Part shown: positions 27,876 through 30,299 of the stretch, piece by piece | Layout: every line of letters begins with the position of its first letter | Position numbering within the stretch: the first letter of the stretch is position 1 | DNA from: Patescibacteria group bacterium | GTDB taxonomy: Bacteria > Patescibacteriota > Gracilibacteria > JAHISY01 | NCBI GenBank assembly: GCA_043812055.1 | Contig: JBDRMN010000014.1 | Location: forward strand, 1 to 56,272 | DNA: 56,272 nt | Direction: 5' to 3' | Notes under the pieces: generated by a model | Seen by the model: only the letters and a program-made list of their open reading frames with translations | What the model was told of the DNA's origin: nothing | Database searches by the model: none | Position numbers and translations under genes: made by a program

Positions 27876-28787
27876 TCACCAAATCAAAACCCGCACTCCT
27901 TTTCTTTTCCCGGTTTTAAAAATAAGCTGGCCAAATTTTTTTTGCTTGCCGCCACGAGGATTAGCCGCCAGATCGAGTACTTCCTCCAAATGCTTCTCCT
28001 CGATCCCCAGTAAATTGCCAACTTGCTGATGGTAAATCTCCCGCAGCACGGTTTTGCGGATTACTCTGGGTAATGAGCTGAATTCTGTAAGCGGAACTGC
28101 ATTAGCCTTCCCAAATCTCCGGAGCCATTCGTCAGCGAGCAGAGAGGTGAATTCCGCATTTTCTTTCGCTGCACGGGCGACTCGCAGTACGGCTTCCTCA
28201 AGCCTTGGGTTGAGCTTTTGAAGTTCGGGAAGAATTTTATTGCGCAAAAAATTCCGAGTATATTTCCAATCACGGTTTGTAGGATCGTGGACGAACTTCA
28301 AGCGATTACGTTTCGCGTAATTAAGTAACTTTTCTTTGGGAACATTCAGCAAAGGCCGCCAGAGTCCGTCCCGGTATTTACCCATCCCGCCGAGCCCCAG
28401 TAAACCCGTTCCCCGAATCAGGTTCAGTAAAACAGTTTCCACTTGATCGTCCAGATGGTGAGCGAGGGCAATGCAATCGGCCCCGACTTTCTTCGCAGTT
28501 TTGCGCAAAAAGCGGTAACGGGCTTCCCGGGCTTCCGCTTCGGATTTGAGTTTTTTTTTCGCCTTTTCCGAGAAAAAATCTAAGGAATATTTTTCGGCAA
28601 GTTTTTTCACAAAAGCTGCATGCTTGTCGGCGGCGGGGTGGATGTGGTGGTTGAAGTGAGCGATGGTGAGTTGCCAGTTACCAGTTGCCAGTCGCGAGTG
28701 AGAAAAGCCTTTTAGCTTCTTGCGAGCTAGTAAATCCAAAAGCGTGACACTGTCGATTCCGCCGGAGACGGCAACAATAATCTTCAT
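27876..28787 (-). CDS. tilS: tRNA(Ile)-lysidine synthase
   Basis: PP-loop VAVSGGIDS, HFNHHIH and LAHHLDDQVETVLLNLIRG. In-frame heptamer array at 28670-28695. Confidence 0.9.
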   Translation of the reverse strand: MKIIVAVSGGIDSVTLLDLLARKKLKGFSHSRLATGNWQLTIAHFNHHIHPAADKHAAFVKKLAEKYSLDFFSEKAKKKLKSEAEAREARYRFLRKTAKKVGADCIALAHHLDDQVETVLLNLIRGTGLLGLGGMGKYRDGLWRPLLNVPKEKLLNYAKRNRLKFVHDPTNRDWKYTRNFLRNKILPELQKLNPRLEEAVLRVARAAKENAEFTSLLADEWLRRFGKANAVPLTEFSSLPRVIRKTVLREIYHQQVGNLLGIEEKHLEEVLDLAANPRGGKQKKFGQLIFKTGKRKGVRVLIW

Positions 28788-28832
28788 ATTTCAGAATAAT
28801 AGGATATAGAATAGACGCGATGAATCGCGTCT

Positions 28833-30299
28833 CTACAGTTTTTTCTTTACGACTTGCTGATCTCCCGCATCCTCAATCTCCAATCCCTGTTTTGCAAATT
28901 CATCCCGAATCTCATCTGAACGCTCCCAGTTCTTTTCTTTCCGGGCAGCCGCTCGTTCGTCTAAAAGTTTTTCCTGCTCCGAACTTAATTCGACCGGCTT
29001 TTCAGACTTAGCTAAATCCAAAGCCAGCACCTCATCAAATTTATCCAGCGTGGCTTTTTTGATGCCCGGCTCAATCGTTTCATTCTTGGCAATTTCCCAG
29101 GCAACCGCGAGCGCTTGGGGGGAATTCAAATCATCTGCCAGCGCTTCGCTGAATTTAGCCACCGAGCTCTGGAAGGGCTCCTGCGCTTCCGGCAGAGCCT
29201 GGTAAATTTCCCGCAAATTCGTCAGGGCTTGCCGGGCGCCTTTCAACGCCTCCCAGGTGAAGTTCAGTTTCGTGCGGTAGTGGGTACCAAGTGTTAGGTA
29301 GCGGAAAGCCAGGGGATCGAAGCCTTTTTCCTCAATGTCCGCGACCGTGTAAAGATTCCCCAGACTTTTACTCATCTTGCCACCATCCACCGCGAGAAAC
29401 TCATTGTGCAGCCAGTAATTCACAAACTTCTTTCCTGTCGCCGCTTCACTCTGCGCGATTTCATTCTCATGGTGCACGGGGATGTGATCAACTCCGCCCG
29501 TGTGAATGTCGAACGCGGTTCCCAGTTCCCAGTTACCAGTTGCCAGAAGTTCGGGGGCAAGATACTTCAATGACATTGCTGAACATTCGATGTGCCAACC
29601 GGGGAAACCGGTTTGGTTCGCAGTTCTTGGTTCTTGGTCATTGGTTCCGGACAGATCTTTGCCAGTCTCGAAATCCCATCTCAAAATATGATTAGCGTTT
29701 TCACCAACGCAAAATTTCCAGAGGGCGAAGTCGGCGGGATTCTTTTTTTCACTCTTTACTTCAACCCTTTTGCCGGCCTTCTTTTCCTCCTGCTTCTGTC
29801 CACCCAGTTTCCCATAATTCTTGAACTTACTCGTATCGAAATAAATCCCGTCACTTGTTTCATAGGTAAAACCTTTTTCCGCCAACTTTTTTATAAGCTC
29901 GATCTGCTCTTTGATGTGTTCACTGGCACGGGGGAGCCGGTGAGGTGTGAGAATATTTAGCTTTTTCAGATCTGCCAGAAATTCTTTTTCGTACTTACGG
30001 GCGACTTCAAGCGGGCCAACTTTTTCTTCGCGTGCACCTTTTTCGAGCTTATCTTCACCGCTGTCCGAATCGCTCGTCAAATGCCCCACATCCGTAATAT
30101 TCATCACCTGGGTCACTTCCAATCCCAGAAACTCCAAACTCCGTCGCAGCAAATCCGCAAACAAAAAAGCCCGGAAATTGCCGATGTGCGGAGCAGCGTA
30201 AACCGTCGGCCCGCAGTTGTAAATCTTCACTTGACCCTCTATGAGCGGGGTAAAAGCTTCCTTTTGGCGGGTGAGGGTGTTGGTGAAACTGATTGGCAT
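28833..30299 (-). CDS. cysS: cysteine--tRNA ligase
   Basis: HIGN (PHIGNFRA), GWHIECSAM, DIHTGGVDHIPVHHENEIAQ and KMSKS. Two in-frame heptamer arrays. Confidence 0.95.
   Translation of the reverse strand: MPISFTNTLTRQKEAFTPLIEGQVKIYNCGPTVYAAPHIGNFRAFLFADLLRRSLEFLGLEVTQVMNITDVGHLTSDSDSGEDKLEKGAREEKVGPLEVARKYEKEFLADLKKLNILTPHRLPRASEHIKEQIELIKKLAEKGFTYETSDGIYFDTSKFKNYGKLGGQKQEEKKAGKRVEVKSEKKNPADFALWKFCVGENANHILRWDFETGKDLSGTNDQEPRTANQTGFPGWHIECSAMSLKYLAPELLATGNWELGTAFDIHTGGVDHIPVHHENEIAQSEAATGKKFVNYWLHNEFLAVDGGKMSKSLGNLYTVADIEEKGFDPLAFRYLTLGTHYRTKLNFTWEALKGARQALTNLREIYQALPEAQEPFQSSVAKFSEALADDLNSPQALAVAWEIAKNETIEPGIKKATLDKFDEVLALDLAKSEKPVELSSEQEKLLDERAAARKEKNWERSDEIRDEFAKQGLEIEDAGDQQVVKKKL

Follow-up and report, generated by a model that had tools for sequence, protein, structure and literature searches.

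Heptanucleotide arrays lying in frame within loops of CysRS and TilS in a Patescibacteria group bacterium and its relatives

How does a tandem repeat with a unit of seven nucleotides come to lie, in frame, inside essential genes, and how is it related to the same repeat in the surrounding intergenic DNA? The question is raised by contig JBDRMN010000014.1 (assembly GCA_043812055.1) of a Patescibacteria group bacterium, analysed over its positions 1 to 56,272 (this whole stretch of 56,272 nt is called the window). In it the genes tilS and cysS, for tRNA(Ile)-lysidine synthetase (TilS) and cysteinyl-tRNA synthetase (CysRS), carry arrays of heptamers. The reading favoured here, with a probability of about 0.7, is that the arrays are lineage-typical heptanucleotide microsatellites, similar to the short tandemly repeated repetitive (STRR) and TAACTGA repeats, which occur genome-wide; that inside genes those blocks survive which keep the frame, are free of stop codons and lie in permissive loops; and that exchange between arrays homogenises them. 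A preliminary description had placed three arrays in these two genes, all in frame, and Tandem Repeats Finder and the translated open reading frames (ORFs) agree with it exactly. The genes and their arrays are as follows:

27876-28787, reverse strand: tilS, tRNA(Ile)-lysidine synthetase, 303 aa; ORF with PDB matches 1WY5, 1NI5 and 3A2K; 39 orthologs were aligned.
28668-28694, reverse strand: in-frame array of tilS, coding strand CGACTG GCAACTG GTAACTG GCAACTC.
28833-30299, reverse strand: cysS, cysteinyl-tRNA synthetase, 488 aa; ORF with PDB matches (E down to 2.8e-95); 35 orthologs were aligned.
29523-29558, reverse strand: insertion at cysS site B, 36 nt or 12 aa (A248-L259), APELLATGNWEL.
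29613-29660, reverse strand: insertion at cysS site A, 48 nt or 16 aa (K214-Q229), KDLSGTNDQEPRTANQ.

Period-7 arrays were detected by Tandem Repeats Finder at 28669-28692 (AGTTGCC, 3.4 units, 88% matches), 29518-29546 (GTTCCCA, 4.1 units, 90% matches) and 29623-29647 (GTTCTTG, 3.6 units, 77% matches). The window holds 14 period-7 arrays of at least three units, versus 0.05 in shuffles; for periods 8 and 9 the corresponding counts are two and one. The motif CCAGTTRCCAGTT (CCAGTT(A/G)CCAGTT, at most one mismatch) has eight matches in the window versus 0.10 expected, and none of 100 shuffles reached eight. Several heptamer units coexist: (G/C/T)AACTGG, AGAACCA, CTAGGTT, TAATCCT, AAAAGTA and others (Tandem Repeats Finder). 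Non-coding DNA is 19% of the window, yet contains seven of the 14 arrays, a density in the spacers about 4-fold that of the genes. That the in-gene arrays belong to the same heptamer family as intergenic DNA, as had been proposed, is borne out by motif matches at three places:

36262-36292, reverse strand: intergenic GGNAACT-family array, bounded by TTCTGGCAACT just as cysS site B is.
36441-36475, forward strand: intergenic array of GGTAACC/GGTAACT/CGCAACT/GGCAACT, whose end is 1 nt short of the ATG of a PF05635 gene (23S rRNA intervening sequence protein, IVP, or bAvd-like).
36820-36853, forward strand: TTCTGG-TAACTGT-TAACTCG-TAACTCG-CAACTCC array, overlapping the stop and 3' end of the PF05635 ORF (36477-36842) and stopping 1 nt short of the ATG of a gene for a class-I glutamine amidotransferase (GATase, hisH-like).

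The density is typical of the lineage: 54 arrays were counted in 170 kb of Peribacteria-like loci versus 71 in 2.07 Mb (144 other loci), which is about 9-fold denser. This background comprised the bacterial loci matched by a CysRS scan of genome contigs and a TilS scan of metagenome contigs; among the matches listed, they belonged to relatives with 28-53% identity, none of them Peribacteria.

In tilS, the array (CGA CTG GCA ACT GGT AAC TGG CAA CTC) encodes R32-L40, RLATGNWQL, in the loop before strand beta2 (AHFNH), and the region translates as ...HSRLATGNWQLTIAHFNHH...; the protein matches 1WY5 with an E value of 1.3e-37 and its PP-loop SGGIDS is intact. The arrays of cysS translate as ...KYLAPELLATGNWELGTAFDIHTGG... 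at site B and ...DLSGTNDQEPRTANQTGFPGWHIECS... at site A. Site B consists of a 15-nt leader, GCCCCCGAACTTCTG, followed by GCAACTG GTAACTG GGAACTG, and the array continues into GGAACCG (to 29514); its coding strand CTG GCA ACT GGT AAC TGG GAA CTG GGA ACC reads LATGNWELGT. Site A is a decayed array of the AGAACCA type, GGAACCA ATGACCA AGAACCA AGAACTG CGAACCA (at 29623-29647), and its coding strand GGA ACC AAT GAC CAA GAA CCA AGA ACT GCG AAC CAA reads GTNDQEPRTANQ. The HIGN and KMSKS motifs and the Cys/His zinc ligands of CysRS are intact; in both enzymes the arrays keep the frame, contain no stop and leave the catalytic motifs whole. The forward orientation is readable in tilS and cysS because the unit that falls in the xAA phase has C or G (CAA/GAA), never T. 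The array blocks would be translated as short flexible loops, neutral or nearly so; the tryptic peptides expected from them are YLAPELLATGNWELGTAFDIHTGGVDHIPVHHENEIAQSEAATGK for site B, DLSGTNDQEPR and TANQTGFPGWHIECSAMSLK for site A, and LATGNWQLTIAHFNHHIHPAADK for TilS.

Both cysS segments, the 16 aa before GFPGWH and the 12 aa between KYL and FDIH, are absent from all eight matched PDB sequences (six CysRS and two MshC ligases). E. coli CysRS (1LI5) aligns at site B as ...CSAMNCKQ-[12-residue gap]-LGNHFDIHGGG, and what the preliminary description gave for the E. coli protein was thus essentially right. Distant CysRS of the candidate phyla radiation (CPR) read WxSPWGxGFPGWH...KYLGETFDIH, without either insert. 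Closer to the window, the site A insert is lacking in 10 of 30 Peribacteria-clade CysRS, which read WxNPSGEGEGFPGWH, and the site B insert is present in nine of the 35 orthologs, the other 26 reading KYL(G/S/D)xxFDIH. A site-A peptide of the form (N/K)(D/N)QEP(R/L)(T/A)(A/K/N)(N/D)Q unites the window protein with its orthologs P0002, P0005 and P0010, which are 68-72% identical, and the site-A array (GGTTCTT type) is thus old.

The tilS array stands differently. The loop that contains it has a length common to all Peribacteria-like TilS, about 14 aa more than in distant CPR TilS and 2 aa more than in the Aquifex enzyme, and array content was found only in part of the clade (PTTNYQL, QTANCKL, PTANCQL, ATADWQL, KIENRKSKIENRKL), other members reading PPIELVG. 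In these alignments the tilS array is no length insertion among close relatives; array DNA makes up only the content of the loop. The description of the arrays as peptide insertions therefore stands for the two cysS sites, which face gaps in the PDB sequences and in many orthologs, and fails for tilS, where the loop length is clade-wide. The ortholog alignments did not show the segments to be ancestral conserved sequence lacking similarity to the intergenic arrays.

In AlphaFold models, CysRS has a mean predicted local distance difference test (pLDDT) score of 85.8, falling to 59 at residues 221-230, 57 at 251-260 and below 50 at 256-259; TilS has a mean of 91.2, and its lowest block is residues 31-40 (76). 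As modelled, the low-confidence dips of both enzymes fall on the array segments, which link confident helices or strands. From the topology of Rossmann-type folds, we infer that site B and the TilS loop, both helix-to-strand connections, are on the side opposite the active site. The arrays are next to catalytic motifs in the sequence, as had been noted; in the models they are low-confidence connecting loops.

The same sites were then compared among relatives. The best database relatives of CysRS and TilS are Candidatus Peribacteraceae, Gracilibacteria and Patescibacteria, with at most 77% identity, which marks the window as DNA of a Peribacteria-like CPR bacterium. Most loci of relatives keep the order purA-cysS-tilS-infC-rpmI-rplT; in L172 three additional genes separate cysS from tilS. 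DNA was read at codon level from nine further loci, which represent eight other genomes (L169 and L171 are one species), with the following content:

cysS site A, window: AGAACCA type, peptide shared with P0002, P0005 and P0010.
cysS site A, L082: GCAACTG/GTAACTC, encoding SQLATGNSQL.
cysS site A, L085: CAGCAAC, four units.
cysS site A, L167: TCGCAAC, 7.5 units, encoding SKLATRDSKLATRNSQLA.
cysS site A, L169: CCAAAGT, four perfect units, encoding SPKSKVQSPKSK.
cysS site A, L081 and L170: no array.
tilS loop, window: GxAACTG.
tilS loop, L082: CCAACTA, three units.
tilS loop, L170: CAAACTG, three perfect units.
tilS loop, L168: CAGACTG/GCAACTG.
tilS loop, L172: GCCAACT, five perfect units.
tilS loop, L167: AAAATCG, six units.
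tilS loop, L085: no array.

The tilS gene of L169 also bears an array at the orthologous site. Arrays that are perfect at synonymous sites are young, or continually homogenised at the DNA level; they cannot be relics because the host proteins are just 55-77% identical. On this comparison, array content is seen to turn over much faster than the host gene.

Two further observations are recorded separately. The CysRS of L170 (512 aa; L170 3517-5055) has an insertion of about 50 aa after GEDKLEK with two CxxC pairs (LTCQNCKK...HQCPFCKK), which looks like a zinc-ribbon module. Long heptamer arrays also occur in unrelated metagenome contigs matched by TilS (L123 1162-4854; L148 821-1936 and 6397-6549; L150 3402-3534): (GGATGCA)n there reaches about 150 nt and (CATCGTA)n 222 nt, the Peribacteria loci having just 3-6 units.

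Two other genes of the window carry arrays:

15450-16703: U32-family peptidase (Pfam 1.7e-90).
16062-16103, forward strand: in-frame insertion in the U32 peptidase, 42 nt (6 x 7), 4.6 units of CTAGGTT and a 10-nt tail, encoding LGSRFQVLGSRSPS.
43208-44752, reverse strand: NusA, of which the KDE-rich C-terminal tail reads through arrays.
43247-43284, forward strand: TTCTGG-TAACTGG-GAACTGG-TAACTGG-TAACTC array, read in reverse as ...ELPVTSSQLPEE... in the NusA tail.

The U32 peptidase is the cleanest case of insertion: LGSRFQVLGSRSPS is absent from the 85%-identical ortholog P0249 and from 18 others, and exactly this site is occupied by other insertions in two more orthologs, one of them with 7-aa periodicity. 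A PDB sequence search with the U32 peptidase gave no match. The 3' end of nusA (43208-43600) holds three kinds of array, namely reverse CCAGTTA (ELPVTSSQLPEE), TAAGGAT (ELRIKDKGL) and the 8-mer AAAGACNN, the last of which supplies the final codons and stop of NusA.

An independent Logan assembly encodes a CysRS identical at 487 of 488 residues, with identical array peptides; therefore the arrays are not assembly artefacts. This identity between independent assemblies bears on the simplest alternative, that the segments are ordinary ancestral protein sequence with coincidental 7-nt periodicity, or arose in assembly. The clade-wide length of the TilS loop and the conservation of the site-A peptide in four species would fit ancestral sequence; the period-7 excess over shuffles, the nucleotide identity with intergenic arrays, the absence from close orthologs and the perfect DNA repeats in relatives contradict it, and we consider it highly improbable. 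The same low standing is given to the idea that the arrays are contingency loci, in which slippage by one unit, 7 nt and hence not a multiple of three, would shift the frame and switch genes off and on by phase variation. Heptanucleotide phase variation exists in Haemophilus, but the hosts here are single-copy essential housekeeping genes (CysRS, TilS, NusA, U32 peptidase) and not dispensable surface, virulence or restriction genes, the arrays of the window are short (3-5 units) and imperfect, and no length variation was found among independent assemblies of the same species (a small sample).

Exchange between lineages was visible in the alignments. Insert and no-insert states interleave on the CysRS tree; P0018 and P0025 have 90.7% identical CysRS and differ in a patch confined to site A; and the CysRS of P0028 is a mosaic, which compared with P0018 is 95.6% identical in the N-terminal half and 64.6% in the C-terminal half. 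The interleaved states and these mosaics argue that homologous recombination between lineages contributes to the patchy distribution of the inserts. A coincidence of mosaic breakpoints with arrays was tested and dropped: the P0028 breakpoint is in the C-terminal domain, away from the arrays. The P0018/P0025 patch, for its part, is at site A.

Arrays of one genome resemble each other. In all four genomes that have both, the tilS and cysS site B arrays are of the same variant (window, AACTGG; L081, AACTAC; L169/L171, AACTAC; L172, AACTGC). In L169/L171, one 17-nt insert, TGT(A/G)GTGAGCTCTGTCG, recurs in tilS and cysS at an identical position within the unit (Cx^AACTA), at L169 4290-4306 and 5504-5520 (equal to L171 10763-10779 and 11977-11993). 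The in-gene variant is matched by intergenic arrays in three genomes: the window has eight further tandem AACTGG pairs; cysS site A of L085 (AACCAG) matches nine intergenic AAC(C/T)AG tandem pairs; and in L167 cysS site A has its match in an array at 3438-3466, while AAAATCG, the unit of tilS, recurs in intergenic arrays. In the window, the non-periodic boundary TTCTGGNAACT flanks four arrays versus 0.16 expected, TTCTGG standing at the start of four out of six GGNAACT arrays. Between cysS site B and the intergenic array 36262-36292, about 30 of 35 nt agree, including a 10-nt out-of-phase spacer, and TTCTGGCAACT is common to site B and the intergenic copy at 36282. Variant sharing, the 17-mer, the TTCTGG starts and the common spacer argue that copying or conversion, and not separate origins in place, relates the arrays within a genome.

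Copying might proceed through discrete mobile mini-elements, comparable to Rickettsia palindromic elements (RPEs), miniature inverted-repeat transposable elements (MITEs) or the small dispersed repeats (SDRs) of Nostoc, in which an array and a defined end are copied into new sites, including permissive sites in ORFs. The boundary at four arrays, the shared spacer, the 17-nt insert in two genes of L169/L171 and the repeated striking of the same three protein sites in different lineages are all what such elements would produce. We nevertheless hold this to be unlikely. The arrays have no hairpin potential (folding z -0.61 to +0.65, no better than shuffles), and an RPE- or REP-like hairpin structure was rejected on that ground. 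Neither terminal inverted repeats nor target duplications were seen when the array flanks were read, although no dedicated search for them was run, and no transposase was found among the six family-scanned ORFs of the window, nor a transposase Pfam family on the genes of the relatives' loci. The coexistence of many unrelated heptamer units speaks against a single element family, and the two copies of the 17-mer, in genes 1.2 kb apart, fit local gene conversion at least as well.

The 17-mer was itself tried as a nested dispersed element and rejected, as only the two in-gene copies occur in 19.4 kb; as a separate observation, it resembles part of the non-array TilS loop of L085 (GAGCTGCCACCGATTGAGCTAGTCGGA). 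The Nostoc SDRs, reportedly from work by Elhai et al. in 2008, are said to be 21-27 nt long. The 17-mer is like them by description only, since conversion between neighbouring genes explains its two copies equally well.

The likeness to RPEs suggested by the preliminary description holds for tolerance in frame and fails for the type of element. Those elements, described by Ogata et al. in 2000, are reportedly hairpin-forming sequences of about 100-150 bp which lie in frame in ORFs, including essential genes, and are tolerated on protein surfaces. The arrays described here are alike in that 48, 36 and 42 nt are inserted in frame and leave the ORFs and the catalytic motifs intact; they differ in being direct repeats of 21-42 nt (21-35 nt for the arrays first described), without hairpin potential or a common element body.

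Outside the genes the arrays keep close to start codons. Four of the seven non-coding arrays of the window lie 1-5 nt from a start codon, and the starts at 36477, 36855, 45210, 30299 (reverse strand) and 25896 (reverse strand) each have a forward-oriented array that ends 1-5 nt in front of them. The array in front of cysS is of another family:

30300-30335, reverse strand: TAATCCT/TATCCTT array, ending ...CCTTTCTCC directly 5' of the cysS ATG.

The reverse complement of its unit lies in frame within NusA (43437-43468), and an array of the same kind ending ...TATCCTTTCTCC directly precedes the cysS start both in the window (30300-30335) and in L170 (3492-3516). In five other relatives a TAAAAT box takes the place of the array, about 6-7 nt upstream of the cysS start; the position of this box suggests leaderless or near-leaderless mRNAs.

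The arrays could on this evidence be functional cis-elements, that is, DNA or mRNA binding sites for a genome-encoded heptamer-specific factor with which the variants co-evolve, the in-gene copies being regulatory. Array ends at 1-5 nt from the starts of four window genes, and at the cysS start of L170, are in keeping with such a role, which has likewise been proposed for TAACTGA repeats (PMC4679880), as are the genome-specific variants common to coding and non-coding copies and the perfection of arrays at synonymous sites. Set against these are the several unrelated heptamer families per genome, the patchiness in close relatives (site B in 9/35; site A absent in 10/30 Peribacteria-clade CysRS), the want of a candidate for the putative binding protein, and the ordinary TAAAAT box, in place of an array, before the cysS start codon in most relatives. 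We regard cis-elements as quite unlikely.

Under the favoured reading, that of slippage-born microsatellites filtered by selection and homogenised by exchange, replication slippage would create and resize the arrays. Selection would filter for frame, passing three units (21 nt, 7 aa) or units with a compensating flank, and would also demand that no TAA falls in the reading phase and that the position is permissive. Within a genome, the arrays would be homogenised and replaced by non-allelic gene conversion or by short-patch recombination among them, and allelic recombination between related lineages would likewise replace them.

Several points weigh against this reading. Translation of the array segments is read from the ORFs alone. 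The concordance sample is 4-6 genomes with 4-56 kb each, counted without regard to kinship, and the genome-wide matching of variants could also reflect selection for a genome-specific binding factor instead of passive gene conversion. The conservation of the site-A peptide in four species and the constancy of TilS loop length across the clade may indicate constraint at the protein level rather than neutrality. Finally, the few near-identical strains and assemblies showed no variation in array length or copy number, their array sequences being identical. The in-gene arrays are therefore fixed on short timescales, and slippage is inferred from differences between species and not observed.

It is conceivable, if doubtful, that an active sequence-directed process (copy-and-paste, gene conversion, or co-evolution with a heptamer-binding factor) keeps the arrays of each Peribacteria genome alike, rewriting the same surface loops of CysRS, TilS and the U32 peptidase. 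If true, such active homogenisation would be a previously undescribed genome-wide concerted evolution reaching core proteins of CPR bacteria.

Some further features of the window were noted. A Rfam scan at gathering thresholds found four tRNAs and nothing else. A dispersed 16-nt motif, CCATTTTGTAGTACGA, occurs in five copies versus 0.04 expected (22228-22271, 27843-27858, 43180-43195 and 49885-49900), with an inverted pair at 22228/22256; the copies at 27843 and 43180 adjoin arrays of the 8-mer AAAGACNN/GTCTTTNN (11 matches versus 0.65 expected). Between cysS and purA, 30300-32407 is a gap of 2.1 kb without a convincing ORF, where Rfam gives a chance-level match only; comparable gaps are present in L082 and L085, and this one may hold an undescribed RNA or decayed genes. 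The PF05635 gene (36477-36842) has GTAACTG-type arrays on both sides, abutting its own start codon and that of the next gene, and its homologues are at differing positions in relatives (L085 4859-5221; L167 12395-12766), as if a mobile cassette. PF05635 genes were considered as carriers or targets of arrays, as they adjoin arrays in the window, L085 and L167; most intergenic spacers have arrays, however, and the association is not established.

The TAACTGA direct repeats (MacGregor 2015, PMC4679880) are, by resemblance, probably the closest described system. They occur in marine Beggiatoaceae, Cyanobacteria and some Bacteroidetes, with 2-6 copies per set; the sets are mostly intergenic, often forward, and end a few nt before start codons, and a small number fall within ORFs, in variable loops or at the periphery, such as LSVINYQLS in an RpoC-like surface loop (PMC4679880). 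In BOGUAY, heptamers related to TAACTGA are rarely repeated, and the copies within ORFs are reverse-oriented since forward TAACTGA has stops in all frames (PMC4679880). The present arrays share a nearly identical 7-nt tandem unit (TAACTGG/CAACTGG), the dispersal in short sets, the proximity to start codons and the minority in ORFs. They differ in their CPR/Peribacteria host, in the coexistence of many heptamer families, in a unit that is not exactly TAACTGA, and in a forward orientation that is read through at internal sites of core essential enzymes; orthologous sites here carry genome-specific variants, a question that PMC4679880 did not take up. The paper on the Peribacteria genome (PMC4736985) is silent on heptamer repeats.

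STRRs are heptanucleotide repeats of heterocystous cyanobacteria, dispersed and of several unit families. Copies within the gene for cyanobacterial RNase P RNA have been described (Vioque 1997, as cited in PMC2858038). Dispersed heptamer arrays of several families, tolerated at a permissive place of an essential gene, are common to both systems; the STRR host is an RNA gene of a cyanobacterial lineage, without in-frame translation. To our knowledge, no homogenisation across genes into genome-specific variants has been reported for STRRs, and we know of no answer since 1990 to the question of what TAACTGA/STRR-type repeats do.

The tandem repeats of Borgs, archaeal extrachromosomal elements, create intrinsically disordered regions and are virtually absent from the host genome (PMC9879509). 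They are alike as fast-evolving tandem repeats within ORFs, and in the models discussed above the pLDDT minima coincide with the inserts. Units of the Borg repeats within ORFs are reportedly divisible by 3. The present arrays have a 7-nt unit, keep the frame through 3n units or through their flanks, and lie in chromosomal housekeeping genes.

What appears to be new is the CPR host lineage, the forward read-through in loops of core enzymes, the recurrence of loop positions, and the genome-specific variants common to coding and non-coding arrays. The finding means that microsatellites whose unit is not a triplet can establish themselves in internal loops of essential enzymes as frame-keeping blocks, and that in this CPR lineage the same loops are recurrent sites of landing or turnover across species. 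The array sites naturally mark where the structures of CysRS and TilS are permissive, which is of use for protein engineering and for the study of fold tolerance, and the genome-specific variants provide a tractable signal by which gene conversion within genomes and recombination between lineages can be measured with nothing but metagenomes. The TAACTGA/STRR-type phenomenon is extended to the candidate phyla radiation, whose small genomes ease the search for the responsible factor.

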